From the NCBI GenBank assembly GCA_973895155.1, contig OZ316894.1:14275680-14339679 (forward strand): a stretch of 64,000 nucleotides of DNA, in the 5' to 3' direction. This stretch comes from Marsupella aquatica (Eukaryota > Plantae > Marchantiophyta). Below the pieces are notes generated by a model, which did not search any database, had not been told where the DNA came from, and worked only from the letters and a program-made list of their open reading frames with translations. Shown one piece after another: positions 8,106 to 31,600 of the stretch. The translations under genes and the position numbers were made by a program. Positions within the stretch are counted from its first letter, which is position 1, and every line of letters begins with the position of its first letter.

Positions 8106-8590
8106 CTTGCCCTAATGTCTGCACCTTTATCGACAACGTCCGCACCTTTATCGACCTTGTGTCTCCAAAAGGTTGACATAGTGACTACCAAAGGACGGTG
8201 ATCGGTGGACACCCGTAACATCCGAGCTTCAACGGGCAGAGGACCGTTGAGTAAACAGTCAAATCGCGACACGATTATTTTGAAATAGTCTCAACTTAAT
8301 TCCGTAACGACAATATACGGATGGCGACAGGATGGCGACAGAACGTATGAACGATATTATGATGTAAAGGTTCGAGGAAAAACGTGCACATTTGGGGAGC
8401 GCCCGACGCTACTAAAGGAAGAGACCAATTTAAACCTTTTATATAAGAAATACATGTATCTCGATAACAGGGCCCGACGCTACTGAAGACAACAAGTGGT
8501 TTTTAGATTTTATTATGAGCATATGAAATGAAATACATGTCTTTTCATAACAGCGCCCGACGCTAGTAAAAGCTGGAAAAGAAAATTACA

Positions 8591-11500
8591 TCAATTATAG
8601 GTTTCTGATTGAGATTCCGATCGAGAGTTGTGTGATCTATTGGTAGAGACTGCTTCGTCATCAACATACTTGCTCTTAGAAACGTCGTCTACATACGGGT
8701 TTCTAACAAAATTTCTGTCAACTCCTCTTCGAAGGCGGAGACCTTTGTTTTCCCAGCAAAGAGTCCTTTGACTATCCTCCTTTCTCACAGCGTTCTCAGC
8801 GTAAGACGGCAAAACAAATGGTTTCTCCGGTGTATCCATTTCAAAACTTGCAACTTTTCTTCTGAGTTGGAAGTGCTTTTTGGTATTCCATTCGGACCTG
8901 GGTAGATAACCAAGTAAGACAACCGATTGAAACATATAATCAATAGCACAAAATGCATGAAGGAGCTGGAAAAGAGAAAGAAGCTTACAAGTTTCAAAAC
9001 ATTACTCGGAAGAGTCATCGCTACCACTCTCGCCAGCAGATTGCTCCTTACCCCCCCATGAGTTGTCCCCCCGTCCACTTCATCAGTTGTCCCCCCACTT
9101 GACTCATCATCAGAGTCAAAATTAAGTACAGACCGGAGCTTGTCCCTCTTTTTCTTTTCCGGTGGTTGAATTGGGGGAGGCAAGGTTTCTACTTCCTTAG
9201 AAGAGAGTAGATTTAAGAACACCTTGGAACCAGTTTCAACAAAATCCTTCTGATTCTCCAGTCCAATTACAAACCTCCCAGAATAGTCTCCGACTACAAA
9301 AGAGCTACCCGAACCAACTGTCCAATCTATGAAAATGTCCCGAGGCCGAGTGATGAGCTCTATCACAGACTGCATGAATCCAACCGACAAACGGGCATTC
9401 CCTGCGAATTCCATCTCAGGTGTTGGATCTATATTGAGAGTACGTGGGAAGCCCAATTAAATTAGTGATGAAGGGATCTTCTGTAACAGACAGAGGTCTA
9501 AACCTCAAGTCCTTGGGTACTTTCCCTTTCTGAGATACTCGGCAAAAGACGTCTAGCCTGAGCGTGAATATCTGCGAGATAAACCAAGAATGATATGTCA
9601 TTCCATGCATTCATACACATCCTTGAGTGTAAAAACAGAGATCACGACTTGGAATTTACCTGCCAGTCAGTCTTCGGCGCGTACATAGGAACTGACATAA
9701 CAACATTGTGTGTGGAGATGCAATGAAACTTCTTCGATTCCTGACATGCGGATATAACCTGAGACATAGGATCGTACTCCCCATTATGCAAAACTGCTAG
9801 CATTCCATCATCTGATAAAAATGGGTCCATTCCACGAAAGAATGATGTTGCCAGTGTGTGGTCGGGGGTATTCCATTTCGGCAATTTTCTGTCTAGCAGC
9901 GATGGTTTCAGACCCGTAGGAAGGTAAATGAATCCTGCGTGTACTCCAAACGATCTTTCCTTCCCCCCACGGACAATTCCCTTGTCTCGATATCCCGACT
10001 TCATGAGGTCCTTTGCCCATTTCTCTACACCATTTACCCAGTCAGGCTTCTCCTCTTTGTTGAACGTTGTGTCATAGAATTCTGAGATGCTAGACTCAAC
10101 CATGCAATGCCTTGAAAGAGTGTTTTTGAGGTCACCAACTTCTCGTTGAACACCCGTTGCAGCCACACTTTCCTGAGCGGAGGATGATCCACCTTCAATT
10201 GCCCTTTTTCGCCTCTTTCTAGTACTGATCGCATCTACTGGAGCAATTGACTTCCCTTTCTCAACAGGTGTAAGTGGGATCAGATGGAGGCCCTGTATTG
10301 GCTTCAGATGCCTCTGGGGTGGCATCTATCTTTGTATCGCCATTGCCGATGGTGTCTGACTTTCTCCCTGCTCAAATGGAAGGCGATGTTAGATTTTGAG
10401 CGCATGGGAAATGCAAAGTATACTAACGCTCGGCGCTGGCCAAACTTTCTCCAAGAGATGGAAGCAAATATATATATTTGTGGAACAAATGGGACAAATG
10501 CAATCTAACATATATTGAAAGGCATAGCAGCGCTAGGCGCTAACCAAAGAACTACAAATTATACTTACATTTTGTCCCGGACCTTGTTGATTCGCTTGGG
10601 ACAGCAGTATCAGCTTTCCCTTTCGCACGAGGCTTCCGGCTTCGGTCAACTTGAACAACTGTGGTCTCACAGTTCATTTGCAATTCTGTTGTGGACTTAT
10701 CTACATCGTCCACTAGTCCCTGCTTCATGTCAGAAACAACATTGACTGGTATCTGGGACTTAGAGAGCTTGTGGAAAGCATCCTTTTCTCGGTGATCAAA
10801 GGGCGAGTCCCATCTGTCTGTATCTAGGTACCATGGATAGTGGGTTCTCTCCCATTCACTTAAAGGTCTCGCTGGGAAAATTCCCTCCGCGGGGTACACA
10901 GAGTACAAATCAGATAAATTGTCACCTTTTGATATTACTGTCCACTTCTGAAAAGCGGCGGGATATGCCCAGAAGTAATCAGGTCTAGTTACTTCCATGT
11001 GGATGTAAAATCGATAGAGGTACCTTTTTGCTCGCTTCTGGTTCTTGAAAGAGTAGTCCTCTTTGTCCGAATACTTCGAAGGCCACATTGTATTAAAAAA
11101 CTTACCCTTCACCAAGTCTCCGTATCTCTTGAAATCATTAGTAACTATATCGATGAGAGCTTCAAAAGATTCACATGCCCAGGCTTGCAAGCGATTCTCG
11201 GGAATGATTTGTTGGACCTCTCTCAAAGCACACTGTAACATCCCCACTGCAATCCCCTCTACATTGTTCCACGTAATCCAGGTATGACACCACTGTTTTA
11301 CTGGATCATCATTGACGCTGTTTGGATGGAAGAATTGCCTTCGGAGCTCAGGATTGCAATGGGCGACAAGCAAAGTACTCCTGAGCTTGGGGTCGAGTGC
11401 GGAAACAGCAGTAAAAAGCTTGGCTCGGTCCATCATACACAAGACGGTATCAGGTTTCTTCTCTCGCTTATTTCTCTCCGTCACAGCATACATTTCAGCG

Positions 11501-12864
11501 CACGTAGACAGAAAGTCCTCAAATTTTGGACTTAACAAAGGAGTGATTTTTGATGTTTTCACTGCCCACTCCTTGGTGGCCTCCTTCATCATTACGGCAT
11601 GTGTTGTGGAAACCTCCTCGGCCGACCAAGGGATACCTAGGGCCGCAGCGGACTCCATGTCAAGCTTGAACTGGTTAGAATATGATTTAATCTTATTCTC
11701 ACATAGAATATAGACAAGAGAATCTTGAGGCATCTTTTTTGTGTACCAAGATCCTTTCCGCGTCTTCAACCTGATCTACTCAAACTTCTTATAATTCGTA
11801 GGGTCGATGAGCTTACTATAGTACTCCAAGTCGTGAATCAAAATCCTCTTGATTTGATTTGCGTCAAGGATCCATGACGGTTCGACCACGGCTTGTCCAA
11901 GCCTGAAGGAAAAGAAAGCAATTAGAAAAACATTTAAGCAGCGTCGGGCGCTCGTAAAACAATTCCTCTCCAAGATATGCTATAAAGAAGAACTTACTGG
12001 TTCATGGTGTGCATCGCTGCTTCAATTTCAATCAGGGAACCCTTGTCCCCATTGAAGATAGTACAGAGCACTCGCGGGTGGTATTTCAGGTTTTCTGGAT
12101 TCTCCTTATTGACAAGCGTCCAGGAGTACAACCGATGGTTCCCGTCAAAAACTGAGAACGCCTTATCCTTCAGAACGAGAAAATCGGGGTCTGCCGCACA
12201 TTCTTCCTCAAACTTTTTGTTTTCGGATATCCATATTGGATCCCAAGTATCACGAATTTCCTGTGTGCAAGTGAGCGTCACACCCTCAGCGTCCGCCGGC
12301 TGAACATAAAACCTCATTCCTATCGACGAATTGTATCCCATACTATGAAAAGAGTCTTTCAACTTGTCAATGGAGGAGCTATCTTTCTGCAAAGTGCAGA
12401 CGACCTCCATGTGCACCAACCGACACAGCGGAATCCTAGGAGGCTCTTTGTTAAACCCTCAGAAATCCTTCCCAAAGAACATGACATGTTTTGAAATAAG
12501 GTCGGTCTCAGAGAACGAGACATCTCCAAATAGCAAATGTGTCAACATTCTCAATCTTTTTTCGCGTCGGCTTCGGAAATGAATTACTTGAGACGGGAAC
12601 AAGCGATGTGCTTGACCTCGTCACTCGACGTGTATACACCAAACCTGAAAATGAAGACTCAGAAGACTTGCAATAGCCACGGTCACAATCCCCAACAACA
12701 CTATACCCCCTCGATGAGGAGGGGACTGCATCCATCGTCTCCCGCGACGAGTGTTGTACGAATGGTCGTACACTACAATTCTCACGATCGAGTACTGAAT
12801 CCCCGTACCAAATTAACGGTTGATGGAGTATTATACCCGATTGATCAGTGCTATCTCCCTCCAT
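8591..12864 (-). pseudogene. Gene A (M1): ParB/Srx-like N-terminal domain, central helical region, beta-class amino-DNA-methyltransferase-like domain, acidic/basic tail; spliced
   Basis: IPLCRLVH…LKDSF…GY…VFDGNHRLYSW (12132-12146); GFIYLPTGL (9912-9926); FLSDDGMLAVLH; VIELITRPRDIFIDWTVGSGSSF…GRFVIGLEN (9301-9327). GT-AG introns at about 11905-11997, 10370-10568 and 9572-9659, at the same positions in M2 and M4. Confidence 0.75.
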
Positions 12865-12990
12865 GTAATCTATTTAAGAGATGTTACGATGAAATTGGGT
12901 ATTACTTATCGTTAAAACAAAGCGACAATCTAAGAACTATGACAAATATTAATGCAAAATCCGCTAAACTGTTTTCGTGATGATCACGCT

Positions 12991-13023
12991 AACCGTAGTT
13001 ACCGTTAAATATTACCGTTGACC
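12991..13023 (-). promoter_or_regulatory. Paired AACGG (MSA/MYB-like) boxes upstream of gene A in M1
   Basis: Minus strand reads GGTCAACGGTAATATTTAACGGTAACTACGGTT. Equivalent pairs occur at 55477-55501 and 63546-63570. Confidence 0.45.
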
Positions 13024-13051
13024 AAACTACTAAAACTTGGTAATGCATTGC

Positions 13052-13441
13052 TAGCGTCGGGCGCTAGTAAAATTTTACCCACATTGGTCATAAAGTTTAA
13101 TGTGTTCAATAGATAGCGCCCGACGCTACCCATTCTCTGGTCTATTCAAGGTTACGTTTTTGGTCCCAGTTTATGTGAAATTTTTTGAAAATGAAGAACT
13201 TTAGGACGTAGGAAGTTTAATTTTGTTCACATTTGGCCCTTAAATATGGTGTACCAATACTAGCGCCCAACGCTAGTACATATATCCCTGAATAGTGCTT
13301 AAATTTGTACGATATTGCATTTTTAGATACAAAAAGTAGACTTATTGGTGTCCACTGTTATGTTAGCGCCCGGCGCTAGTCTAGTGTGTGACTGAATTAA
13401 ATCCTTATAAATCCTGGAATTTTTGGTAGTGCCAGGCGCTG
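13052..13441. repeat. Cluster of five TAGCG-N5-CGCTA palindromes between the divergent genes of M1
   Basis: Copies at 13052, 13114, 13261, 13364 (perfect TAGCGCCCGGCGCTA) and 13427. Confidence 0.9.
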
Positions 13442-13673
13442 CTGAAATCATGTGATTTATCTTGGCCTATATGTGTTCATTTTGACACAATAAATATCCC
13501 TGACACCCGCACTTACCGGGGCAAAAAGGACAAACTCTACATTTATGATTTCAACGGACACAATTCTATGTCGTATTGAAACGAATTTTATAACGGTCAA
13601 TCGTCTTCACGCATTAGTATAAGCATTCCACTTGGGGGGAATTTGCTTTGTTGATTCCTTCATTTTCTCCACA

Positions 13674-16600
13674 ATGTCTCGCTCAATTGTAATTACACGT
13701 GCTTGTACTGGAGACGTCGTCAAGATCCCCGTGCAAGTTTCTGATGCTTACAAGCAAGTTAGTGAAACCTACCTTTGCGGGAGATTTGATTTGAGGATGA
13801 ATGATATTGAGTCCATTCTCCCATAGGAATCGATGAGTGGAGAACTTCAACGGGCTGCGGCATTCAATGTAGATGAGGGAGTACGCTTTTGGCATATGAA
13901 TATCGGGCTTAGTTACACGCTTAATGTCAGACGTGTCGCTCCGGAAACAGCAGTTGGGAACATTCCTGTTGTTGTTGTTGACATATTTGACAGTGAAGAT
14001 GGTGATGTTGCACCCACTCCTCCGTCGCAGTACAAAGTTCCGGTTTCCGCTTTTGTTAAGGATGAGCCGGTGGCTACCTCCGGAGTTGGTCATAAAGTCT
14101 ACCGGAGGAGTGCGATGGACGCCTTACTCAAGGCCATGGGACATAGTGAACTATCAAGATTTATCTCGGCAGGGGACTTCCGGCATAAGCAAGTTCCTTG
14201 TTTTCCAGACAAGTACAACGGAAATGTTGTATTTGAACTGCCTCCCATTGAGGGAACGCTCTCCAAGGGATCTAGACTTCGTGACATGGACCGTGCCAAA
14301 GATTGTTACATTTGGACCAAAAATTTTCCGACAACTGCGAACGTGCATCCAAAGAAACATTGGGAATTTGGTAAGGTTACGTGTACCGGGTTCATCGAGT
14401 GCAGGAACAAGTCCTGTGAGTACTTTCAACGAAAGAAGAGATGCAATGCAAAGGCCTGGCATGGTGCTCCTAAACTCGGTGGCCAGCACGGGGTGGGTTC
14501 GTTGATTGAAGAGGGTGGTGTAGTCTGTCACTATTGTGCGCAGATTCCTTTCTGTGTGAAGTCTCTGCCCTGCTCGCTTGTTTTATATGTACCCTCAAGT
14601 CCTTCTTGATACAGAGACCTCTAGTCACATGTCTCGGCTTGCAGTTCATAGAGGTGAGCATAACCATCCAAGTAGGAAATTTTTTTCGAGGAGCGCTGAG
14701 AAGATAGCTGAGGATTTGATAAGAAAAAATCATGAAGCCAATCCTCCAGCAAAACCGGCTGGTATTTTGAATTCTGCAACCGGTTTGCTCGTGAAAGCTC
14801 TATGCGAAAACGTTGACGACATAGTAGATATTGAAGAAATGGAGATTTGGAAGTCTCTCATGGTATTGTCTACCCCCCAGAAATTTGCATCGCTTTGTCG
14901 AAGAGTTCGAATGGACCAGGCTGGTCGTGGTGAGTTAGATTTCCTAGCTTAGATGCAAAGGTCAAATAACATTTCTTTCCTCCAAAGGTACCTCCTACCG
15001 GGTCAGGGTTGTGTAGCAGATAGGCCCCATATATTCAAAATGATAGTCAACGGTCATGGATCTGGTGTAGATCTTCTCCGACAGATGCAACCCGGCGGAA
15101 GATTGGAAGGAGCTTGGGTGAGTTTTGATGTGATGAAGCGAGTGACAACCGGCTGGTTTACTTTTAGTGTACACGTTTACGATCACAACTTCCGAGCTCT
15201 TTGTACAATCTTCACATGCGAACTAAAAGCTGAAGACACGGAGTCCTCTAAGAAAGCGTGGAGAATTATGATTGAGGTTTGTAAGGAAAATGGGTTACAG
15301 GACGTTGTCATTCAAGGTTTTATGGCTGACAATGCTCAGGCTGGATGGATCGCCGTTTGCAATGTCTTTTTTGGAGGGCACCCAGACCCTAAACGTGAAC
15401 GCTCTGATGCATTTCACTTTTACCAGTCTTTCCATTGACACTCTACAGAAGGAGTTTTGGAGGGTAAGCAACCAGAACATCGGTAACTATGGGAGAAACT
15501 TCGGAATGCTCCAATGTTCGTTGTGGCGTATTGAGTTTCGAGGGAGATCGTGTTGTGGTGGCAAGCGGGAAACTGTCCCAGGAAAGCTGATGATGTTGCA
15601 GAGTTGGATATCTTGGTGGGTTGTTTGATGGCATCAGTGGGGGAATTTCATTCGTGTGGTAAGTTTTCCTTATGCGTTTATTAGTCAAACCTCAGTGTGT
15701 TTATACTAGCGTCAGGCGTTGCTTTGATTTCCACTCAGAAAACCTTCAAACATTACAGAAAACGAAACTTGTACCGATAAACCTTCTTTTATTATCTCCT
15801 ACTCATTGCTAGCACCTGGCACTACTTATACAAAAGAAGTAAATTTTGTCTGGACGGGTTTTATTGCAGAGCAAAAGCGCAGAAGAAGGTGCACTCATTC
15901 CAAATTGTACCGGGTCAGAGTCAAGGCACGCCTCCATGAAAGCATGGGCTACCAAAAAAATGGTGGGTCTCTTTGGAGCATGCAAAGTTGATCAAAATCG
16001 AGCTCTGTCACAAGTTGCGGGTTATAGCGCATATCGGAAGGGACTCAATAGAGGGAAGGGGCCAACTATCTGGGAATTAGCCTTCCGATCCGCAGACCAA
16101 TCTGGTTCACCCAAGTTATTTGAAGAAGCAACCAACATGATTCTTTCCAACGCTGCTGATTTGGATCTGGATAGGAGCTCTCCTCTGAATGGAGATATTG
16201 TCGCAAAGTCGGTTAAGAGGAAGGGACTCGCAACTGGGATTGTCTCGCCACAAGACTCCCATCGGCATGACACCATTCTCATCACTACACCAAATACTCA
16301 AGGGTTCAAATGGAAGAATCTCAACAACACTGCCTTCACTTCCTTTCCCGCAAATGTAATAGATCCCATAGTCGACCTCGGCGGGAGCGACACTTCAACG
16401 AATGGAAGTGATTCCCTCGCGAACACCCTTGAAGCCAGAGGAACAGAAACATCATCGCAACCCCCACTCAGTGCTCCGGCTGTTCTTCAACGTTTGCCGA
16501 CAAAGTCAACTCCTTTGGAAATGGACGTTCCTAGAGGGACCTAGCATTTTCGGCGGACGGTCAAATATGGGGCAGGGCCTTAGTGCAATGGGGCTTTGCA

Positions 16601-17390
16601 TGGAAATTCTAAGAGGGATGAGTGTCGAAATCGTGTCAAAAAAGTCGGGTTCCATTCGGCAGCAGGTGTTGTTGGCATTGTTGTCAGCGGACATTGCATT
16701 TTCAGAGGCACACCCATTGCAAAAATGATATGGTTCTGCCCAAACAAAACATGCCACAAGAGCCGCCCGCGTCGTGGTGTTGAACGCCTTCCTCTTGTGC
16801 CGGATATCTTGCCAGTTGTGAAAGGGACCAACCTGTCACCTGCCAAGGTAGAGTTCCTTGAAGCACAAGGAGTCTTGATGGTCCAAACAGCTGCGACGTC
16901 TCGCGCTGCACCTGTTCCATTCGGCTTGAGAATTAATGTAAACGCATTTCCTGAAATAATCAATTTCGCCGACCCCAATGTACGCCTTCGGACCAGGAAT
17001 GGGAGAAACTCCAGACCTCGATCAAATCTAACTTTGGCTCACAGTACATGAATGGAGTCAGCTCGGAAAGAAGCTATGACTCTGGATGGCGAGTGGGATG
17101 TGGGTATTGGAATTGCATTTGGGAAGCAATTCAAAATCTGGACCCACGAGAACCTTCGATCCCCAAACACGTACTTTGTCCAAATTTGCGTCTTCCCAAC
17201 CTGTCCCTGTGAGGATTTCTTCCATAGTCATTCTCGCGGCAAGCCATATATGCCTTGTAAACATTTGTATTGGGTGTTTATAAATGTCTTCAAGTTTCAT
17301 GTAGAGGAGTCTACCCTATGTAGCCAGCCCATTTTCACAGTTGCGGAAGTCAGACTCGTGCTGGATAGGCAGAACGGGAATGGTTTGTAG
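13674..17390 (+). pseudogene. Gene B (M1): Mutator-like DDE transposase with GCM-like Cys/His domain and C-terminal SWIM finger; one intron 15659-15869
   Basis: FELPP…CTGFIECRNKSC…CHYC…HRGEHNHP; WVSFD (D 15127), GFMADN (D 15328), SDAFH (DxxH 15406-15417), TGSESRH (E 15918); SWIM CPCEDF…PCKH (17202-17264). Several in-frame stops and frameshifts. Confidence 0.85.
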
Positions 17391-18093
17391 AGTAACACGA
17401 CATTCTAGAGACTATCGTTTTTCGTAACGGATACTATGGTTTTTGTCTGTAGTCAACGGATATTACACTTGTTTTTTTCTTGCTTTTGGTTAGCACCTGG
17501 CGCTGGTTCCAAAACATTAATATTGTTAAATTTTGAATTTTATCTGGTTATTGTCATGTTGTTGTCCCTTAACTTCAACTTTTGTCCCTGTTTAAGCTTT
17601 GTTAGCGCCTGGCGCTAGTTTTCACACTCTGTCTAGATCCAATATTGAAAATGCTAGAACCATTCTTCGCCGATCGGTTGTTTAAGCCTATAACTGGATT
17701 TAGGGTGGGTCCCACCATAAATTACTCCATCCCTGCATGGATTTTATTTTTCCTTCTCGTAGGCCGAATTGCGCTTTCTAAACTGGACTGTTCTGAAATG
17801 ATGCTGTATCTAAATAGTAGGGATATTCAATGACGACATTATTCATGTAGAACAGATGGACACTCGGTTTGGAACCTCTCTTTGCAGTTGTGACCACACC
17901 CTTGGCTTATATCTGACCGCCTCACATTTGGCACTAACAAACATTCAACTTGATGATGTGGTGGAAATGACGTTAATTTTTGGGGAACTTAGCCAAAAAG
18001 TACATTTTTACCATAAGACTTTCCTGTTACCAGTTAAGAGTTACCTGATAACAGGAATTTTATTACCTGTTTCCTGTCACCGCTGTTATACCC

Positions 18094-18233: not shown

Positions 18234-18702
18234 AGGCTTTACATCGTGCCAGGAAACAGGAGATTTTTTAACTGATACGAGCAAAAACTTTCCTTGTATC
18301 AGGAAAGTTTTACTGTTATGAGCAATGTTTTTACTCACATCAGGAAAAACATTCATGGAATTGTCATCCTCCTTACTGTCGTGAGCAAAACCAAACAAAA
18401 AAACATTAAAAAATGCCATGAAAAGTGGAGTGCCAAGTCTCTCCAACCACTTATAAGAGTGTTCAAAAAGAAATTTGTATAAAAAACGGGGCACTACCCT
18501 AACCTCAAAAGGCACATTTTGAGCAAAATATGTAAATTATACTAGCGCCAGGCACTACCAATGATCCAACCCTATTTTACAAAACCAAACATTGTCTAAT
18601 ACACTCATTCTAAATAAGTTTCTCTATATGATAATGCCGTTGGAAAATGACAAAGTACTGACCAATTTAACGTAAACTACATAATAGGCACCTATTTAAA
18701 TA

Positions 18703-21700
18703 CTACCCTAAACTTTGTCGTTCTAACAAGAGACGTATTTCTCCAACGGTGAGTATAGGTTGACTCGACAATGTTGATTCTCGTAGGTCCAGTTTGAAAA
18801 CATTCTTATCAATCCAATACAGATGTTTGCAAGGCAAGAAGGGTTTTTGGTGGGCATGACAACGATAGAAATCTTTGCAAGAACAGCACGGGACGCAGCA
18901 AATCTGAACCCAATAGGCAATGACAGAGTGGTGACCAATGTGTGTTTGGATGCAAAATTGTTTGCCCCATCCATTTCCTGTTGCAACATCCCTGGAATAG
19001 ATTATTTTCATTTCTTCTTTCTCAACTGCCTCAATCTTCTTATAGTGCGACTTAGTTAGATGCATTCTCTATAGGCACGTCCTCCCATTTTGAGATAAAC
19101 AGCAAATTGTCAACTGAAGTAGATTGATCCTTTCTGGGAAAACATTGACATCGATTCGGAGATCTAGTCCACTTGGTGCATTTCTTACACGATCACCTTC
19201 ACCTCCGATCGATATTCCGTTGTCCTTCAGAAACTCAACCTCTGCAGCAAAAAGATTTGTAGTCAATGCAACGGGCAAGTGATCACAAGGAGGCGGAACA
19301 TTCACCACACCTTTTCAAGGAAACTGTTGTAACAAACATTATTCGGATAGAACCAGATCAATTCTGGATGTGGTTCCCCTCTGAAAAGTTGCGCTGCCTG
19401 AACTGCAATACCAACAACTCTGTTTGACATCCGGTAGCCTACTTTCTTCAATCGATTTCTACATTCGTCATGATCTCCATGTCCGCCAAGCGATCCATTG
19501 CAAACTGGGCCAGCACCATGCTTCAAAGTTCTCCTAATATGCCATGCTCCAGAAGGAATATTGGACTCCAACACGGACGGGGTTACTTCTTCAATAACAT
19601 GTACTAGGGGCGTGACTGGAGTTGCAGATGACCTCATCTCCATCGGAGGAGGAGGTGTCCGCTCTTCAAGACTATCTAAAACATCGCTCTCTGAAATATT
19701 GACAACTACACTCTCTTGGAAACCTGGTTCAGAAGGAATCGCAAAGAATTTCGTTCTATTGAGATTTCTTTGCTTCAAACCTTGGGTGTTTGGGGTCGTA
19801 ATGAGGATAGTGTCATGCCTGTGGAAGTCTTGCGCAAAGACGTTTCCAGTAATGCCCCTTCCTCTTTACTGATCATGTATTACATCCCCGTTCAAAGGGG
19901 TATTCCTTTCCAAATCGAATTCAGCCGCATTGGAAAGGAAAAGGTTCGAAGCTTCTTCAAACAACCACGGGGAACCCGCTAGATCTGCAGAGCGGAAAGC
20001 CAGCTCAAACACTATTGGACCATTCCCTCTGTTCAATCCTCTCTTGTAAGCCATATAGGCTGCAATTTGAGAGATCGCTTTGTTCTGGTTGGTTTCACAC
20101 CCTTCAAAGACTCCAACCTTCTTCTTCGTTTTCCAGGCAATCATCAATGCATGAGACGACTTGGATCCACCACAAATTGGAATCATTGCCGCTTCTTCTA
20201 CACTCTTGCTCTGCAGAATCCATCAGACAAGGTTAGAAATAGGAGTTGAATAGCGCCAGGCGCTAGCCAATGAACATATAGAAATAATAGCACATGTGAT
20301 CACTTTGAACCTATATGAGTAGTGCCAGGCGCTAACCAATGATTGTTTTGGAATACTTACCAATCAAATAAAATTTCCCCATTGGCGCCATCGAACAACC
20401 CACCAAGAAATCCAACCTTGCAACATTTGTAATTTACCAGGATAATAATTTTTTGCCCTCCACCAAGAATCAATTTCTCTAGAAATACAATATGCCTCGA
20501 TAAATGACTTTGCATTCCGCAACCTATCCCATAGGGCACGATGTTCACCTTGCTTTCCCTCATGAATGCCTTCAACTGAGTGTCTTCAAAATGACTGGAA
20601 GAAGTAAAATGCATCTGATTGCTCATGTTTGGGATCAGGAAGTCCCCCAAAGAACACATTCTTGATAGCATTCCAACCAGCTTGAGCATTGTCCGCCATA
20701 AAACCATGAATGTGGACATCGTGAAGACTATTCTCGTCAGCCACCTCCAACATTAAACGCCAAGCCCTCTCAAGGGATTTTGTATCTTCTGCTCGCAACT
20801 TGCAAGTGAATATCGTGCAAAGTGCACGATAGTTATGGTCATAAACATGCACACTAAACGTAAGCCAATCCTTTAACATTTGGTGCATCACATTGAAACT
20901 TACCCACGCACCCTCAAGAGGCCCTCCGGGCCTCATCTTTCAAAGAAGATCCAGACCGCAGCCTTCACCCTTAGTGGACATCTTGAAAATGTGTGCACTC
21001 TCATCTCGAGACCCTTGTCTTGGCAACAAGAACCTTTGCAGAAATGGGAATGCAATGTTCTTCTGCATGCTTACCAGAAATTCCAATTCACCTCTTCCTT
21101 TCTGGTCTTGACAGATACTTCTGAGAAGGTTCACAAATTTTTGAGGCGTTGAGATGACTTGAAGAGATTCAAAAATCTCTGTCTCTTCTATTGGGATCAT
21201 GTCTTGAACTGATGACTCACACATTGCCTTAAAGAGAGACCCGGTGACGGTGTTCTTCATACCCAATGTAGTTGCACACGGATTCAAAGTCAAACCTTGT
21301 TCCATGTGCATCTTTGCCACTTTCTCCGCCTCTCTTGAAAAAACTTGCTTGCTTGGATGGTTATGATGTCCGATGTGAATGGCAAGCCGTGACATATGCT
21401 TAGCAGACTCGACATCAACTTTGGAAGACGCGTACATGTAGAACATCATGGCTGGATAGGACTCAACACAAAATGGGTGCTCCCAACAATAATGATAGAC
21501 AATCCCACCCTCGGGAATGAGTTGCCTGACTACGTGCGGTCCAGAAATCTTAGGAACTCTTGCCCAAAACTCACATGAATTGTTACGACATTCCAAGGAA
21601 CCCGTGCAAAAGACTTTCCCAAAATCCCACACCTTTTTTGGGAGAACATTTGCGGAAGTCATGACAATCCGAGTCCAATAGTAGCAGTCTTTGCTCCAAT

Positions 21701-22292
21701 CCATGTCCCAAAGGCGTTCACCTTTTGAGCAAACTCCAACAACTGGAGGCAGTTCAAAAACAATATTCCCATTGTACGTGCCACACAAGCTTGATTCTTG
21801 CTCAAATCGGTAATCATTCCTTCGCATGAATCTAGAGATCTCACTCTGGCCTTTTGATTGTAGAATCGTATCAAGAGCACTCCTCCGGTACACAACTGAA
21901 TCGGTCATCCGCCCATCGACCGTCTCCACTTTCACGTTGTTTTGAGGAAGACGAAGCTTTGCCAAATCTTCATCATTGCTACTATCTGAAAGGTCAATCA
22001 AATCGACTTTCAGCTTCCCCTTTGAGGAGGATGGTACCTCAAATTTTCCCAAACTAACGATGTCATACTTCACCCCACCGCACAACCTCCAATACCGAAC
22101 TCCTTCAATGAAATAAACATCAACCAGCACTTCCTCTCCCGAGATAACTATTCTCTGTATGCTTTCCCTAGGAATTCCAAACCTGGTGGCAAGATATTCC
22201 TCAAAAATTTCATCACTTTTCTTAGGAGCAGTGAGAAGGATTGTCACAAGGTCGCCAAGCGGACAGCGAGAAATTACAATTCGTGAATCCAT
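18703..22292 (-). pseudogene. Gene B (M2) transposase; intron ~20211-20360
   Basis: MDSRIVISR…FELPP…HIGHHNHP…GFMADNAQAGW…SDAFY…CSCKDF…PCKHLYW; collinear with M1 gene B. Confidence 0.85.
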
Positions 22293-22488
22293 TGGAAATG
22301 GCAAACAGAAGTGTGAGGCCGCCTCAATTCATTTGTGCTCAACAAAACTGTTACGAATACGACAAAGTGACCTATCAGCAATGATTGCTTGTCATTTTCT
22401 AATGGAATTACACATGTCAGTAAAATCATACCTATCGAGAAAAGCTTATTGATCCATCTTTAAACATAAATTTCAAGGCACACAAATA

Positions 22489-23055
22489 ATAGCGCCTCGC
22501 GCTAAGTAACTGAGATGAAAACTTCAAGCTAATATGCACATAGTAATATATATTTTGTCACGCATCATCTCAAATGACACAATTGTCCAAGTTCCCTTTG
22601 CTAGCGCCAGGCGCTAGCAAATATGTTTCAAGCATATTTGGTCCATAACGGTAACTCCCAATGCTAGCGCCAGGCTCTAATATGTTTCAAGCATATCTGG
22701 TCCATAACAGTAACTCCCAATGCTAGCGCCAGGCGCAAACTAAGGACTACTCAATAATTAACGGTAACTTGAATGGTTATCCGGTTAAAGTTTATTAGCG
22801 CCCGACGCTAGTAAACTATTCAAAAAGAAATGTTATTTTACCAAAGGAATATTATGTTCCGTGTTATATAGATGAGAGGATAATGAGACCATAACGACAT
22901 CTCCCTATGCTAGCGCCAGGCGCTAACTAAACTTTGACTCAATTGTTAAAGGTTCTATATTACTATGATAAACTCCAATTTCTTGAAGGATTATCATGTT
23001 AATGATAGATTGATGGAACCGTCACAACGGACGCCAATGATAGCGCCTGGCGCTA
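22489..23055. repeat. Cluster of seven palindromes in the M2 inter-gene region, including a ~60-bp tandem unit (about 22599-22740)
   Basis: Copies near 22489, 22602, 22665, 22724, 22796, 22911 and 23041, mostly TAGCGCCAGGCGCTA. Confidence 0.9.
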
Positions 23056-26000
23056 TCTAATAACGACTCGCTCTTCAACAGTAACTTCAACTGATATTTT
23101 TGTCGATTCAAGTATAATATTTCTGGAGGTAGTAGGTGAATGGTAACTTAAACGGATACCTTTTTATGCATTGTGAGGTCTACTGGTCAGTCCTAGATTT
23201 AATCAACAGTGCATTTTGCTCCAAGTGTCCAATAGCCCCCGCCTCACATGCCGCTAGAGGTCCAATCGTCGTACATTTAGGGTACTTTGCTTCCTTTGGA
23301 ATTTTTCCTATTGAGGCATATTCTTCTCATTTGCGTTGGTGTCGTTGAGGGCTGCATGTAAGGAGAATCCGCATGATTAAGCGTACAAACTCCCAAACTA
23401 ACTCCCGTACGAAACAAAATTGAACGGGAAAAATCTCCATATCGTAGTTGGGAGAGTATATCGGAATGGGATCTGGGTCGCCAAACCATTCCCAGTCTTA
23501 AGAGTCATCGTATTCCAGTTGTGTTTCGAGTCGAAGAGTAACTCATTCCACAGCGCAGTATCCTCTCAGTCAAGTTGAGCTTCCATGTCCAAAACCAAGG
23601 CGTTTGGAAATGGAACATGTTGGAGAGTTTGCCGTTCAGAATGTCAAAGACATTGGGAAATTGGTGGTTGATGTCATTGAAAAGCACGTGATGTCGTTTG
23701 GAACTGATGCGAATGGGTTACCAAAGGAGCCTTCGAGAATTCCTTTATGTTGTCTCGTTCATATGGAGGTTGTACACACTCTTCAGAGGAACAGTCGATT
23801 GAGAAGCTGAAGGACTCGTTTCGGACATCTAGTTACAATTCATCCATTGACATGAGTTTTTTTGTTCAGCCATCCAACACTGAAGGTGATCCGTAGATTT
23901 GTATAGATGAAATTTGGAGCACTTGGGATCCTATTTGGATCATGGAGAACCAGTTGTTTGAAGCGAAATGTGAATCAAACCCCGCTTTCCACGTCCTCAA
24001 GGACAAAATGTTCTATGTTTTTGATGGAAATCATTGGTTGTTTTCGTGGACTCAAGTCACAAACGAGAGTCCAGAGAATCCTAAGTATCATCCTTGCGTG
24101 CAATGCACAATTTTCAAAGGAGACAAGGCATCAATCATCGAGATTGAGGCAGCGATGCATTGTTAACCAGTGAGTTTTTTTTCACCACTGACTTGTCTTC
24201 CCAAATTTGATTGTTTCCCTCAACAATTTCTCCCTTATTTCAGGTTGTATTGTTAGGTTAGCGCCAGGCGCTATTTCTAATGTCTTGAATTTCACAGGAC
24301 GGGACAGGCAGTGGTAGAGTCTTCTTGGATTTTGGATGCGGACAAAATCAGGAGGATTTTGGCTCATGATCTCGAGTACTACAAACCCATAATTGATGAG
24401 GCAAATTATGCAAAATTCAAGAAGACAAGGAAAGGAACCTGAAAGGGTTTGTGGTTTACAAAGAAGATGCCGATGGAGGCGTTGGTCTACATCTTGTGTG
24501 AAAACAAGATCAAATTGTACTCACAACAATTTCAGGTGATGAAGAACTAGGCGAGCAGTTCCGGCGCACCATGGTCGATCGAAGAGACGAATCTTTGTCA
24601 CAATCAGATGATGAAGGAAGCCACTAAGGAGTGGACCGTGAAAACTCCGAAGCTCACTTCCTTGCTAAGCCCAGAGTTTGAAGATTTCATGGACACTTGC
24701 GCTGAAATGTATTGTCTTATTGATCAACTCAAACGTGAAAAGGTCCTTGAAGCTGTATTCTGCACCATGGATAGAGCTCGCTTGTTCACTGCCAATTCGG
24801 CATTAGATCCAAAATTGCGAAGTACATTGCTTGTTGCGCATTGTACTCCCGAGTTAAGGAAATAGTTTTTCCAACTGCTCGGAGTATCAGACGACCCCGT
24901 GAAGCAGTGGTGCCATACCTGGCATGTTTGGAACACGATTGAGGGGATAGCAACTGCTCTCCTCAAGGCATGTTTGAAGGAGGCTATGGGTTCATGCACC
25001 GAACAACGTCTTACAACACGCGGCGGAGAATTGATTTCCTTTGAGAAGTTGAAGGCTTTGATTTTAGATGATTTTAGAAAGTACGGGGATTCCGTAAGGG
25101 CCAAGTTTTTCAACACTATTTGGGAATCCAAGTACACTAACAAGGAGGAATTGAGTGAAGTGAACCGCAAGAGAGCCAAGAGATATTTGTATTGATATTA
25201 TGTGAAAATGGAGAGGAGTGACCCAACCTATTTCTGGGCTTATCCTAGTGCCTTCCAGAAATGGGCCGTTGTGAATTTGAGGTCCGAAGCGTCTGGAGAC
25301 TTTCTTGGGTACACCATGTACCCACTAGAGGGCAAGTTTCCCCCAAGGAAAATGGCAAAGTGGGAGGTTTTGCATTGTCCGTGGTATCTTGACACAGACA
25401 AGTGGAATTCACCTTTTGATGAGACAAAGAAAGATGCTTTTCACAAGTTATCGAAGAGTTTGGAGCCCATAAACATTTGTCAGAGATGAAGCAGGGAATC
25501 GATGCAGAGATTGATCTCTCGGCGATAGAGCTCGAGCGGATTTGTGAGACGCAAGTCGTCCAAGTTGCAAGGAGCCAAAAACCAAGAGCAAAACCCAAGC
25601 AAGAAACAACCCCAAGTGGATCTCAAAAAGAGACCAAAAAAAGTGAGTCCCTATTTTTGTAGCTTCAAATCTCCGTACTTTTCAATCTTCTATTTGGCTA
25701 GCGCCAGGCGCTGTTATTAATATAACTATTTCTCTAGCAGGATCTCAAAAATCAGATGCGGGGTTGGTGTTGGGTAATGCTATGACTGCAACTCCAGAGC
25801 CTTCTCGTGACAACAATCTTGGGAAGGACGAGGATCCATCAGAGGGGTCGGAGACCCCGGAGGATATGAGTGCTCTGCCAATGGACGCCACAAGCACTAG
25901 GAAGAAGAAGAAACATCGCGTTTCTACTTCCGGTGGGTCTCACAGGGAAACGCTTGCGGCAACTGGTTTACAGAGGAATGTGGGGGGCTTCAAGGGGAAT

Positions 26001-26879
26001 AAATCCAGGCACACATTCGTGGACTCTACCTTGGCAGAGTTCTACGATAGCGTGTTTCAGAGGGAAGAGAAGCCATCTTGGGTTGGTCAGGTAGAGGCAT
26101 GGGGAAAGAATCTTGTGAAATTGGGTTCTCGGTCAAAGGGGGTTATCAGAGGCGGCAAAGTTAGGGCATTTGGTGTCAATGCAGGATTTCTATATTTGCC
26201 TACTGGATTGAGGCCATCACTTTTGGACAAAAAAGTGCCAAAATGGAATGTGCAAGACCACTCTCTTCCTGGGGCTTTCTTTAGCGCAATGGACCCTTTC
26301 CTTCGGACGACAGACTTCTGGCTATTCTTCACACTGAAGAGTATGACCAGATTTTGGAAGTGATATCTGCATGCCAGTAGTCGCAAAAGTTTGACTGTAT
26401 TGCATCATATACAGTTGTCATGGGCTTTCCTATGTACAAACCTAAGTCTAACATTCAGGTAATGAATGACGTCCATTTTGGCCAGCGCCAGGCGCTAATC
26501 TTGTATATCGATATGCATCTCCATATTTTTGTTGCACGACCTTACTATTCTATTGTTTTGTAGATCTTCACGCTGCGGTTGGATATATTCGGTCGGGTTT
26601 TGAGAAAATCAACAATACCGAAAGATCCCAAATTCTGTCCATTGTCACCTTCCGAAGATCCTTCAATTACAAATCTGATAGGACTTCCGTCTTTAAAGTT
26701 GGATCCAATGCTAGAACTTGTGGCTTGTGGAAACGGGCGGCTCACAATTGGTTTTATGCAGTCTGTTATAGAGATCATCTTCTGTCCAGGGGATATTGTG
26801 ATCGACTGGACCTGTTGCTCAGGAAGTTCATTTGTGGTGGGAGACTATTGTGGTAGATTTGTTGTTGGGATGGAAGGGC

Positions 26880-27222
26880 TGTTAGGTATTTACTCAAGGT
26901 CTAGGATTACGATATGTAACCATAGTTAGACTAACCGTAATCAAAGACGTGGTTAGGTTAACTAGAATGCACACTATATGCCAAACGGTGTTTGCTTGGA
27001 TAAGTGAAACTTAGGCTCATTGTTATGTAGCCACTTGAGAAATGAGGAGAGCTTATATTGTGGAGACTTGGTATGGCTGACGGGCTTAGAATTCAGTAAA
27101 GCTCTCTTGTATATTCCCGTGGACGTAGCCTCAAGGAGGTGAACCATGTATCTCTTGTGTCGACTACTTGCACGTTGGATGTGTCATGTGCTTACCGTTG
27201 TGATTGTCGTCTATGCTCTACA
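26880..27222 (+). repeat. Copia-1 5' LTR
   Basis: TGTTAGG…CTCTACA; about 21 differences from the 3' LTR by hand count. Confidence 0.97.
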
Positions 27223-28643
27223 ATTGGTATTAGAGCATGCCTGGGAGGTGACGTGTATTCGTGATGGGATTTCGTGATGGGATTTCGTGACGGGATTTCA
27301 TGATGGTTTTTCCAGCGTTGAGTGTCGGTGGATTTCCTGGAGTTCCATCGCATGGAACTTGGAGTTTATGGGCTCAACGGATAGATCGGGGCAAGGGCTT
27401 TCTAACGGTGTGAAGAAATCGTTGAACGGAGCTTGTGGTGCAGAGAGATCTAAGTTTTTGCCGTTCTGGATTTTGTGAAGAAAGTCGACAACATTCATGT
27501 TCGACGGTTTTTTTGAGGGACCAGAGTTTGTTTTCTCGATGGTGAAAGCTCTACGGCGAAGGAGGCATCGCATGTAGTAGCTCTACTTGTAGATCGGGAC
27601 GAGCTGTTTGTTTTGGTAACTGATTTGTTACCAAGTGAGTACCGTGTGCGACGGGACGAGCAAAAGAAGCATTCTGATTTTTTGACCAGCTATGGAGTCC
27701 TCTTTTGCCTGAGCGGGGTTTCTTGTCGTTGCAATCGACTCGGAGGGAGAAGCGTCAAGTGTTTTGACTCAACGGAGAGATTGAGGCAAGACGATTGTTT
27801 TGAGTCCGGGATTGGCTCTTTGATGCGAAGAGGAAGGCTAAGCAAAATCAATTACCTTGTTGGACTTGGTGACGGCACCAAGTGCAATTCATCAACATTC
27901 GTTGTTGACAAGGTACCATTTTTTTCTCTTTGAAAAACTGATTCGAAATTGGCTATGGCAATTGAGAGACATTTGTCATCTTTACCAATTTTTTTCTCCC
28001 TCGTTATTTCCTCGTTTTGGGTGCTTCTTATATCTATCTTCACCGCCTCGGAGTCTAGTTTCCAAATCTGAAATCAGATCTTGATTTCGTCAAAACCCAA
28101 GTGAGATATCTTGCGTTTGGTGTCGAGGGGTACATTCTGCCGTGTGTATTTTCTGCGCGCACGACTAGATTTCGACGACGAAGGGTGGTAGGGGGTTTTG
28201 GGGGTTCGAGGACACTTGTCAGCCCCTCAATTGCTCTTCCAAAATCCCCACAGGGCCTGTACAAGGGTCATAGAATATTCCAAAAAACCAGAGAGCTATT
28301 TTTTGTCCGTCCATCAAAGATTCCGTCCGCCGAAAGGTAACTTTTTTTGTTCGTCTACGGCAAGTTGCTAGCTATCAGAGTTGGCAACGCGGTGCATAAA
28401 TTGAATTGCATTTCCGACGTCGAGTACTAGTTCACATTTTGGTTATTCCCCGAGGTGGTCAAAATGGGGGAGAATTCCATGTTTTACCCACCCCGACCAA
28501 AAAGTGAATAACTTTTACGTCGAAGTTTGGTTTTGATTTTGGTTTTCAGCATTGGAAAGCTAGGCTCGTGGGCTACATGGCGGTGATAACTTTTGAGTTT
28601 TTTGAGAAGTTGAGAAAAACGTCATTTTTTCTTGATTTCTCAC

Positions 28644-31600
28644 ATGAGTGACTTGGAGGAGGGTTCTATTGAGTCACCGGAGAGAACAGAGAAGGAAGCA
28701 GAAGATCTAGCGGAATTGTGGTCACCGGTATTGCGGCGAGTGACAAGAAAAAGGATGGGAACAATCAAGCTTGGAGGTCCCAAGTTTGAGGTTACGAAAT
28801 ACGATGGCCGCATGGACTACTTGTTGTGGGAGCGACAAGTGAAGGGGGTACTCCGTGCAACCGGGCTTGGGAAATTGCTGAAGGACCAGCCAAATGATGT
28901 CGACAATGATGACTGGCATGACATGCAAGAGCAGGCTGTGAGCACCGTGATGCTCTATCTTCAGCCTAATGTCATCAAGCATGTGGCGGACCATGTCGAT
29001 TGTGCGTCATTGTTTGTCGCGTTGGAGCAAAAGTACCATCAGAAGGAGCTGTCGAATCGGCTCTACACATCTTTGAAGCTGATGAGCTTCAAGATGAAGG
29101 AGGGAAGTGCAAAGATTCAGGACCATATTGATGGTTTCAATGATCTGGTCGTTGATTTGAAAAATCTGGGGGAGGATTTGAGTGATGAGCGGCACGCTCT
29201 TCACTTGCTTAGCTCTTTACCCTCATCATATCAGTCATTGTCACGAGTGCTGCTTCATTGTGATAGGAAGACTATCACTTACAATAAAATTGTAAGTGCT
29301 CTGTTGACTGATGACTTGCAGCAGAAATTGACCATGCCCTCTCAGCCATCATTGTCGTCTGGTGCTGCCTTGAATGTGAATTGTGGGAGGTCATAGAAGC
29401 ATCCAGAGCAGCGCACGAATGGCAGGGGAAGAAGTAAATCTAGGACAACATTTGCTTCAAGGGGGAAGTCCCAGGAGAGAAAGCCAGTATAGTAGTTTGC
29501 TGGAAGTGTCACAAGGTTGGTCACGTTAAGAGGGATTGTAAGGGTACGGCAGCTGAATCTTCATCAGCCAATGTGGCTAGTGCTGATGGAGAAGTTGATT
29601 TACTCAATGATGAGTATGTTTTATGAAGCCAAGAGTATGCCCTGTGCACATCATCTAGGAGAGCGAACGATGTCTGGATTCTTGATTGTGCTTGCTCCTT
29701 TCACATTTGTTACATTTGTGAGTATTTCAGTTCTTACTCTATTTCAAACGGTTCAGTTCTGATGGGAAATTATCACTCCTATCGAGTAGAGGGTATTGGG
29801 TCTGTAAAGATTCAAATGTTTGATGGCATTGTGCGCACAGTGTCCGGAGTCAGGTTTGTACCTAGCATGCGTAAAAATTTGATTTCACTCGGTGTGTTGG
29901 ATTCAAATGGTCATCAATGGAGCGTTATTGATGGTGAACTTCAAGTCAGGTCAAGAGAGACAGTGGTTTTGAAGGGGAGCAGACAGAAGAATTTGTATGT
30001 GTGGCAGGGCAATACTATATGTGGAGAGGCCAATGTAACCAAGTCTCACGAGGAGATGACTCAACTATGGCATTCACGGCTAGGCCACATGAGTGAGAAG
30101 GGTTTGGCTATCTTACGGAAGAATGAACTCATTTTTTATTTGCAATCTTGTAAATTAGAGTTTTGTGAGCACTGCATTCTTGGAAAGCAGCATCATCGTG
30201 CTTTTGGTGTTGGAACTCATCGTTCCAAAACGGTTCTTGAGTACATGCATAGTGACATGTGGGGTCCATCCCCAACTTCCTCACACTCTGGAAAGTTGTA
30301 TTATGTATCATTTATTGACGATTACTCAAGATTTGTGTGGATTTATTTCATGACGCATAAGTCTGATGTCTTGTCCATTTTTAAGAAGTGGAAGGCCAAG
30401 GTGGAGAATCAGACTGGAAACACGGTCAAGTGTTTGGATACAAGGGTGAAGAGTTTGAGGTCAGACAATGGCGGGGAGTACACTTTAGTGGAATTTGAAG
30501 AGTATTGTTCAGAATAGGGGATAACTCGCCATCTCACCACAATTTATACTCCGCAGCAGAATGGTGTCATTGAGAGGCTCAATCAGACACTATTGGAGCG
30601 GTCACGGAGTATGTTGAGCCAATCAGGTTTACCACAGGAATTTTGGGCAAAAGCTGTCAATACCGTAGCTTATTTGGTAAATCTTTCTCCTTCTAGTGCT
30701 ATCAATTTCAAAACGCCATTTGAGATGCGCTATAAGCGGCAAGCAGACTATCATGGCTTGTTAGTTTTTGGAAGTGATGCATATGCTCTCACACCAAAGC
30801 AAAATAGGACCAAGTTGGATCCTACCTCCAAGAAATGTGTTTTTCTTGGGTACCAAAGTGGTGTGAAAGCCTATAGGCTATGGGATCCTATCGCCTGTAA
30901 GCTCGTTGTCAGTAGGGATGTTTTCTTCAATGAATCCAGATTATTGAAGGAGATGGAGAATACTCAGGTCTCCCGTACAGACAAAGGAAAATCTCCTATC
31001 CCGGACTCATTGAGGAAGAGATTGATCATGAAGTGCATGATCGGAGAGAAGGAGGTGCTCCAAGTATGGAGCTGGTTCCTGTGCCAGAGGAACAAGAGGA
31101 GTTTGTTGATGCTGGTGAGCAGCAAGTGGATGTTGTTGAGCTTCAAATTATATCAGTAGACGCAATTCAACCGGAATCATTGGCTAGAAGAACATCTGGT
31201 CGCACTGTACGCGCTCCTCCTAGGTATGGACAGTGGGTTGATTCATCTCAACTGCAAGAGGATGATTTTGTAGCTGATGATGAGCGTGATGCATTAATTT
31301 TGGAAGAAGGGGAACCTTCTTCATTTGATGAGGTAAGTGCTTCAAAGGAGAAGCAAAAGTGGGCTGTAGCAATGCAAACGGAGATGCAGTCACTGAAGGA
31401 CAACAAAACTTGGGAGCTTGTTAAGCTGCCTAAGGGTCAACAAGTGGTGGACAGCAAGTGGATATACAAGTTGAAGGATCAATCTACGGGAGGTGGATCA
31501 AAGGTCTACAAGGCTAGGTTGGTAGCCAAGGGATTCACATGGGAAAAAGGTGTGGATTACAATGAGGTCTTCTCATCAGTTGTTAAGTACTCAACAATGT

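Follow-up and report, generated by a model that had tools for sequence, protein, structure and literature searches.

What becomes of a DNA methyltransferase domain when the motif that defines its catalysis is gone, and why should a plant mobile element keep such a domain? This question is raised by a 64,000-nt stretch of the liverwort Marsupella aquatica (assembly GCA_973895155.1, contig OZ316894.1, positions 14,275,680 to 14,339,679; hereafter the window), in which three copies of a methylase-like domain lie in the accessory genes of probable DNA transposons. A first-pass annotation had read the domain as a beta-class amino-methyltransferase with YLPTG where DPPY or SPPY is expected, and had proposed either a pseudo-enzyme or an enzyme of altered chemistry. 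The overall reading reached here, to which we give an even chance, is that a dead beta-class module ends a ParB-like transposon accessory protein, predicted to bind palindromes of its own element and thereby to aid unsilencing or mobility.

The six-frame scan placed YLPTG at 9926-9912 on the minus strand and at 26193-26207 and 58213-58227 on the plus strand (copies 1, 2 and 4, respectively), each time within the context GV(H/N/D)AGF(I/L)YLPTGL and each time encoded by differing synonymous codons. The order in all three copies was YLPTG, the string MDPF (9830, 26289 and 58309, its start lying 32 codons after that of YLPTG), a GT-AG intron, the segment D-W-x-x-G-x-G (at 9327 in copy 1) and GRFV(I/V)G(L/M/I)E. 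The intron splits the domain at an identical codon position in each copy (9659-9572, 26459-26563 and 58480-58655) and measures 88, 105 and 176 nt, respectively. The C-terminal string given by the first-pass annotation had the motif and the order right, but it was a composite of three slightly differing copies, which read PRDIFIDWTVGSGSSF (copy 1), PGDIVIDWTCCSGSSF (copy 2) and PGDIVMDWTVGAESTF (copy 4). In copy 1, which lies on the minus strand, the exon at 9660..10367 (5' boundary set by eye) encodes a Lys/Arg-rich linker and the N-half of the domain, with the motif IV strand and the L-x-D-x-G segment; the intron occupies 9572..9659, and the C-half at 9190..9571 carries R-x-S-x-GFMQ in place of HPTxKP, D-W-T-V-G-S-G as the motif I equivalent and GRFVIGLE. 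All three copies are pseudogenes. In copy 1, the frame breaks near 9440, at a point where the contigs of its relatives are 4 bases shorter, and again near 10280 (10280-10300), where such contigs are without 1 base, with stops further upstream; copy 2 is broken by a frameshift after MDPF and by a Copia insertion at 26880-33421; copy 4 carries stops.

The position of YLPTG relative to the catalytic motif was read from a profile-profile alignment (HH-align) between the family and a canonical control profile built from 13 methylases of phages and plasmids, with [DNS]PP[YFW] present in 11 of them. The two profiles aligned with a probability of 96.5-97.6% (E 9e-10 to 1e-11) and were colinear over 182-203 columns. 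The family string D-L-x-F-I-(Y/A)-L-P-T-G fell on D-x-I-I-T-D-P-P-Y-G, where Y takes the place of D, L that of the first P and T that of Y, so YLPTG (9912..9926, minus strand, in copy 1) is the motif IV equivalent, in register with DPPYG, as had been claimed. Motif IV lies N-terminal to motif I in the family, which is the permuted beta-class order. MDPF was considered as motif I and rejected; it aligns to the helix and L-x-x-D-G segment that follow motif IV.

The loss extends through the family. A profile of the three N-halves, searched against 1.84 billion representative proteins at E up to 0.001, returned 42 proteins of 60-453 amino acids, and no canonical member was found among them. The alignment had 46 rows, 43 of which (3 from the window, 40 from the database) had letters in the motif IV columns; (D/S/N)PP(Y/F) occurred there in none of the 43. 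Position 1 was occupied by Y (14), A (14), F (7), S (3), C (3), R (1) or T (1), positions 2 and 3 were L in 36/43 and P in 41/43, and position 4 was T in 33 and N in 5, with no Y, F or W in any row. What is conserved is thus x-L-P-T, with ALPT (14/43) commoner than YLPT (8/43). Serine at position 1 came as SLPT twice and STPT once, in no case with PPY; an SPPY in the database relative P0037 was rejected as motif IV, as it lies upstream of the domain, where the motif IV column itself reads STPT. The earlier claim that the substitution is shared and predates the decay of the copies was borne out by these counts and by the saturated synonymous sites described below, whereas YLPTG as such is not invariant in the family.

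In active enzymes, the D or S side chain and the carbonyl of the first proline are reported to bond the target amine (PMC10406627), and an SPPY-to-APPA mutation is reported to abolish activity (PMC8885841). Since the YLPTG-type domain offers neither a D, S or N for hydrogen bonding to the amino group of the target nor an aromatic side chain on which the flipped base could stack, N4/N6 transfer appears to have been lost; we consider it likely that the domain carries out no such methyl transfer and is catalytically inactive. Of the two possibilities of the first-pass annotation, a pseudo-enzyme fits the evidence better than altered chemistry, given the free variation at position 1 (Y, A, F, S, C) and the complete absence of Y, F and W from position 4. 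The Tyr of YLPTG is, on this alignment, lineage-specific and not a conserved new catalytic residue. The domain should not be filed as an N4/N6 methyltransferase, nor as a 4mC enzyme of the Marchantia or rotifer type, having the predicted beta-class fold without its defining catalytic motif.

The copies bear the marks of long maintenance. Between window copies, the domain is 62-68% identical in protein sequence, and the proportion of nonsynonymous differences (pN) is 0.19-0.24 against a saturated synonymous proportion (pS) of 0.73-0.83, in both halves. The ParB-like exon of the same gene is similar (pN 0.18-0.22), and the blocks of the transposase-like gene are higher (0.26-0.37). Judged by these proportions, the domain is under purifying selection, and the low pN at saturated pS therefore indicates that the non-canonical domain was long maintained before the window copies died. 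A methylase can thus stay under strong selection after its catalytic motif is lost, and what such proteins are for may not be the transfer of methyl groups.

Assignment to the beta-class fold draws on sequence matches and on a structural model. The C-half matched PF01555 (E 5.7e-4, 20.3 bits, PF01555 positions 165-218), under the gathering score of 26.7 bits, which was reached neither by the window exons (11.7-20.8 bits) nor by the spliced relatives (at most 26.1); it also matched M1.HpyAVI/DpnA (E 1.1e-4). The N-half exon alone gave no PDB sequence match. An AlphaFold2 model was made from a spliced liverwort relative, P0009, and not from the broken window copies; its mean predicted local distance difference test score (pLDDT) was 64.8, with about 87-93 over residues 131-290. 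The highest VIA Z scores of this model were obtained with M.BceJIV (14.4; root-mean-square deviation 3.5, 205 aligned residues), CcrM (14.0) and M1.MboII (13.8), and superposition on M.PvuII and M.RsrI gave 13.3 and 12.7. Rotifer N4CMT scored 11.6, MT-A70 proteins 8.9-11.7 and unpermuted methyltransferases at most 6.1. Foldseek agreed (CcrM, E 6e-10) and also matched viral N4/N6 methylases, and the fold searches ranked beta-class enzymes first over model residues 119-381. The domain thus has, as modelled and as known from the relative P0009 only, the permuted Rossmann fold of a beta-class amino-methyltransferase, which agrees with the fold and motif order proposed at first pass. Of the two outcomes that the first-pass annotation had named as refuting, a fold other than Rossmann and DPPY/SPPY in intact members, neither was encountered in this model or in the 43 aligned rows. 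Comparisons in the ESM Atlas, used only as leads, gave 0.88-0.89 for the N-half, with PF01555 clusters at ranks 2-3. The domain of a second relative, P0047, scored 0.93 with a PF01555 cluster and 0.96 with another cluster that is unnamed.

The named relatives were all from the liverwort Calypogeia fissa (4 of the 20 looked up, and a fifth, P0015). Word-index protein searches for longer relatives yielded none among 87 candidates for the N-half exon and none among 1638 for the middle exon, which is weak evidence. A search of P0047 against phages gave no match, nor did a related-locus scan of viral contigs; one 13-residue match in the related-locus scans (L002) was taken as chance.

The methylase-like domain ends an intron-containing accessory gene of roughly 1100-1250 codons, as estimated from exon spans. 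In copy 1 (all on the minus strand), the gene comprises an N-terminal exon at 11997..12750 (approximate start) with a segment weakly resembling ParB and sulfiredoxin (FDGNHRL), a middle exon of about 440 codons at 10568..11900 (approximate boundaries; no family match; 62% identical to copy 2 over 338 codons), the two halves of the domain, and an acidic tail with the final coding block at 8594..9189, conserved with 59329-59598. The FDGNHRL exon lies upstream of the domain in all three copies, and the N-terminus of the accessory protein is probably ParB-like. Facing it at 13827..17390 on the plus strand is a divergently transcribed gene for a probable DDE transposase, recognized by eye from a Cys/His zinc cluster, SFD...FMADNAQAGW...DAFH and a C-x-C...C-x-H end; the encoded protein had no Pfam MULE (Mutator-like element), SWIM or GCM match and none in PHROGs or NCBIfam. 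The two genes stand head-to-head on opposite strands in three elements of 65-70% DNA identity. Element 2 (18400..33620) has its transposase-like gene at 18712-22328 (minus) and its accessory gene from about 23600 (plus), with YLPTG at 26193. Element 3 (47340..59750) has the transposase-like gene at 47478-53476 (minus) and the accessory gene at about 55800-59600 (plus), which holds domain copy 4 with YLPTG at 58213. A partial fourth element (59750..64000) contributes the N-half of a transposase-like gene (59806-61489, minus), and the window end within it matches the start of the accessory gene of element 3.

Sampled words of the locus were found at 39-44% in four sequencing runs (two organisms, two studies); no RNA run was among those listed. 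The region at 8.3-17.3 kb was matched by 4145, 2118, 54 and 742 contigs in these runs, with all 30 bins covered in three of them; many of these contigs were <95% identical to the window, and no single piece spanned the whole region. Thousands of variant contigs across both genes fit a multi-copy family that spans both; the element is a probable DNA transposon. Long terminal inverted repeats and a 9-bp target duplication mark the MULE superfamily, along with its DDE domain; in the window elements, terminal inverted repeats and a target duplication were looked for and not found. Elements 1 and 3 each have, downstream of the transposase-like gene, a 20-nt stretch with the palindromic core GGTGGG(T/A)CCCA(C/T)C (17700-17719 and 47087-47106, 90% alike); its relative orientation is opposite in the two, and it could be a terminal motif.

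The elements share an interrupted 15-bp palindrome, TAGCGCC-N-GGCGCTA, which occurs at 53 window sites between 6952 and 63518 when up to 2 mismatches in the 12 arm positions are allowed. The pattern, picked after sight, had 93 strand matches where 0.16 were expected. In an unbiased count of all 6-base arms with spacers of 0-4, the palindrome came first (40 sites versus 4 for the next unrelated arm), and against the 53 sites, 20 Markov simulations yielded 0-3. The four elements hold 15, 13, 14 and 8 sites (those of element 2 extending up to 26880), a further 3 lie at 6.9-7.4 kb, and none was found in 27.1 kb of retrotransposon-rich window DNA. Only 2 of the 53 fell in provisional coding blocks, which make up 65% of element DNA (binomial P ~1e-19 for at most 2 of 50), and one of these two proved intronic on inspection. 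In element 1 (8398..17616), the sites at 8398, 8469, 8552, 10425, 10529, 11940, 13053, 13115, 13262, 13365, 13428, 15708, 15811, 17492 and 17604 are all outside coding blocks. In these elements, saturated at synonymous sites, the palindrome recurs in homologous introns. One such intron follows the ParB-like exon (sites at 11940, 24260 and 56640), another precedes the methylase exon (10425/10529, 25700 and 57706), and a third belongs to the transposase-like gene (15708/15811, 20252/20321 and 51546/51607). The domain-internal intron bears it in copies 2 and 4, and not in copy 1.

Variants of the site are element-biased, the arm GACGCT being common in element 1, perfect arms in element 2 and an AGCGCT arm in element 3. 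Just outside element 1, the three further sites fall in a stretch (6800-8150) that also has a 19-21-nt tandem repeat and open frames 150-195 codons long; it is possibly part of another element or of the end of element 1. The observed/expected ratio of CpG was 0.72 in the elements (sites excluded) versus 0.57 in the retrotransposons, with overlapping block ranges (0.63-0.83 and 0.42-0.67), a weak and indirect hint of lowered element methylation. A fall of CpG with distance from the sites (0.78 to 0.59) was too weak and confounded, and was not counted.

The closest precedent for the accessory gene is algal. In Ectocarpus, the element Sola1-1_Ec32 is reported to carry, opposite its transposase, a gene for a protein of 1104 aa with ParB-like and N4/N6-methylase parts, for which binding and modification of its own element have been proposed (PMC12477816). 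The window gene resembles it in being a long accessory gene opposite a transposase, of similar size, with a putatively ParB-like N-terminus, a PF01555-type domain and a proposed action on its own element. It differs in that the algal domain is predicted to make N4-methylcytosine (4mC) or N6-methyladenine (6mA), whereas motif IV is lost family-wide here, that those of its relatives which carry a name come from the land plant Calypogeia fissa, that the transposase looks Mutator-like rather than Sola, and that there is a defined dispersed palindrome. By architecture alone, the window gene would belong with the algal ParB and methylase transposon cargo, of which similar green and red algal proteins are reported in the same source; binding and methylation of the own element are untested proposals in the case of such cargo (PMC12477816). 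The Plavaka elements of Bostrychia encode PAG2 (PF01555 and SET) and PAG3 (ParB-like and 2-oxoglutarate oxygenase), accessory genes that are carried by giant Mutator elements of Chondrus as well (10.1101/2025.02.11.637652). Here, too, methylase and ParB-like domains are DNA-transposon cargo with inverted repeats near the ParB-like gene, but the two domains are in separate proteins, unlike the single gene of the window, and the repeats form tandem arrays beside PAG3 instead of single sites across introns and spacers.

Among methylases proper, the domain shares with the bacterial and phage beta-class enzymes (M.BceJIV, CcrM, M1.MboII, M.PvuII, M1.HpyAVI and M.RsrI) the permuted fold with motif IV before motif I (Z 12.7-14.4 over about 175-206 residues). 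It differs from them in having x-L-P-T for (D/S)PPY, DW(T/S/R/A)xG(E/S)G for DPFxGSG and R-x-(S/T)-x-GF for HPTxKP, and in being fused into a long eukaryotic protein whose gene has introns. The first-pass annotation had placed it beside the eukaryotic 4mC enzymes of rotifers and Marchantia. Rotifer N4CMT (PMC8885841, PMC10406627) and Marchantia MpDN4MT1 (10.1101/2021.02.12.428880) do have a bacterial-type beta-class fold in a eukaryote, but they keep (T)SPPY and are reported to be active host genes, whereas the window family is transposon cargo without the motif, and that framing gave way to the algal precedent. Inactive amino-methylase domains are known from DIRS1 retroelements and METTL14 (PMC4738411), and the DAM domains reported in retrotransposons retain their catalytic pocket and are of another family (10.64898/2026.05.21.726589). 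A further comparison is offered by VANDAL21 of Arabidopsis, in which the binding motifs of VANC21 are reported in introns, intergenic and terminal regions (PMC5735166). As in the window elements, an accessory protein is combined there with a short motif that is densest in the non-coding DNA of a DNA transposon. The motifs of VANC run to 8-9 nt, lack palindromic symmetry and stand in tandem arrays of one direction, unlike the mostly single 15-bp palindrome, and no protein family shared between VANC and the window accessory protein was seen. Family-wide loss of motif IV, a land-plant host and a defined dispersed palindrome would distinguish the present family from these known kinds. The literature search, which left Repbase reports and subscription papers beyond its scope, found no account of the palindrome, of the loss of the motif or of such a family in a land plant.

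Taken together, we propose that the accessory protein would be a dimeric, sequence-specific binder of TAGCGCC-N-GGCGCTA and would dock on its own element with its ParB-like part and its dead methylase fold; once docked, it would shield the element or recruit an activity that maintains the element's expression or mobility. Beta-class enzymes and ParB proteins work as dimers on two-fold sites, and by this analogy we lean slightly towards a protein that acts as a dimer on its two-fold site, with the dead domain serving as a module for dimerisation and for contact with DNA or a flipped base. That the outcome would be a VANC-like self-targeted anti-silencing is a more tentative suggestion, somewhat short of an even chance. 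A more specific version, which we regard as doubtful, likens the system to ParB/parS self-recognition: a ParB-methylase pseudo-enzyme of bacterial derivation would load at the CG-rich palindrome in introns and spacers of the element, and its disarmed pocket would hold cytosines or flip them out, so as to protect them from methylation by the host or to read their state. If true, a new mechanism of anti-silencing would have come to light in early-diverging land plants. The proposal supplies a precise candidate target site, and with one protein and one 15-bp oligonucleotide, self-recognition and silencing evasion by giant DNA transposons outside Arabidopsis can be put to a direct test; a protein that protects CG-rich DNA in a sequence-specific manner would, moreover, be of use as an epigenetic tool.

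Several observations weigh against the proposal of a dead, ParB-like palindrome binder. The ParB-like exon gave only weak matches, to phrog_1033 in PHROGs (E 0.13 for copy 1 and 0.0064 for copy 4) and to TIGR03187 DGQHR in NCBIfam (E 0.008), with nothing at the Pfam cut-off and no ParB among PDB sequence matches. The transposase-like gene is judged to be Mutator-like by eye, from its motifs. Most of the database relatives are single-exon fragments, which may themselves be pseudogenes. The fold was predicted for relatives and not for the broken copies of the window; the C-half of the P0009 model is of low confidence (pLDDT <50 at 294-331 and 357-366), and the P0047 model was poorer (mean pLDDT 56.5). 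The S-adenosylmethionine (SAM) side of the domain and one proline are conserved, as an active enzyme would also show. Finally, the palindromes could instead be read by the transposase, and sequence-specific activation by a Mutator transposase has been reported (10.64898/2026.08.24.746577). Apart from these points, the best PDB sequence match of the ParB-like exon, galectin-8 (E 0.04), and the matches to Anthrax_toxA (E 0.038) and MCR-2 (E 0.006) were judged to be chance.

The last of these objections leads to the rival that survives best, although we rate it as unlikely, namely that the domain is dead, the palindromes are docking sites of the zinc domain of the transposase, and the accessory protein is a partner, scaffold or decoy. 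The transposase-like gene has the Cys/His cluster and, in three elements, the palindrome in its own intron; Mutator and Spm proteins are reported to bind clustered motifs and activate their own copies (10.64898/2026.08.24.746577), and maize MURA to bind the accessory protein MURB (PMC12973397). However, the sites are dispersed through the introns of both genes and not only near the element ends, and a 15-bp two-fold site suits a ParB-type dimer. Inverted repeats adjoin the ParB-like accessory gene in the red algal elements as well (10.1101/2025.02.11.637652), and conservation of the transposase is lowest in its N-terminal zinc region (47% identity), whereas the site does not change from element to element.

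It is improbable, in our estimate, that the domain is an active SAM-dependent enzyme of altered chemistry or substrate (for example protein, RNA or another base position) working through backbone contacts of the L-P turn. The SAM side is largely kept: D-W is present in 12/12 C-halves, each glycine of D-W-x-x-G-x-G in 11/12, and the downstream Glu (G-x-E) in 11/12, with Asp in the remaining one. As the Asp, two Gly and Glu are retained, SAM may still bind. These residues, the motif IV proline (41/43), the Arg of the segment R-x-(S/T)-x-GF in place of the Lys of HPTxKP and the strong purifying selection would all suit an active enzyme, but both functional side chains of motif IV are gone, position 1 drifts (Y, A, F, S, C, R, T) in a manner unlike a new catalytic residue, and the Phe of D-P-F-x-G-x-G (kept in 0/12 C-halves) and the His-Pro of HPTxKP are lost too. 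In KsgA/Erm-type enzymes, Leu or Ile at position 2 does not preclude activity, though those enzymes keep the N and the Y.

We find it very improbable that the domain serves an active partner in a heterodimer in the way that inactive METTL14 serves METTL3, recruiting to the palindromes an active beta-class methylase of the host or element, such as a liverwort 4mC enzyme. Beta-class enzymes are indeed reported to be dimers with divided labour (PMC10406627), METTL14 supplies a precedent (PMC4738411) and Marchantia has active TSPPY enzymes (10.1101/2021.02.12.428880), but no canonical partner was found in any window element, the sole six-frame [DNS]PPY match lying in unrelated DNA at 43521, nor was any canonical member found among the 42 profile matches. 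That the odd motif merely reflects neutral decay of once-canonical enzymes in dead copies, all three window copies being broken by stops, frameshifts or an insertion, is largely refuted and nearly negligible, for YLPTG is common to the three with different synonymous codons at saturated pS and 40 database members of <50% mutual identity share motifs of the x-L-P-T type.

The surroundings of the elements are eukaryotic and plant-like, with spliceosomal introns and Copia and Gypsy retrotransposons. The Copia retrotransposon at 26880-33421, in the last methylase exon of element 2, has long terminal repeats identical at 323/344 positions and a 5-bp duplication, AGGGC. A young Copia-type element at 34398-40203 has terminal repeats identical at 142/144 positions and a 923-codon open frame with integrase and reverse-transcriptase domains, and a decayed Gypsy pol (reverse transcriptase, RNase H) lies at 43555-46449. 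A Copia fragment at 48001-49013 interrupts the end of the transposase-like gene of element 3. At the start of the window, positions 1-1224 hold a long imperfect inverted repeat (arms up to ~300 nt, 74-91% complementary) and a 139-nt tandem pair, resembling a fold-back or a miniature inverted-repeat transposable element.

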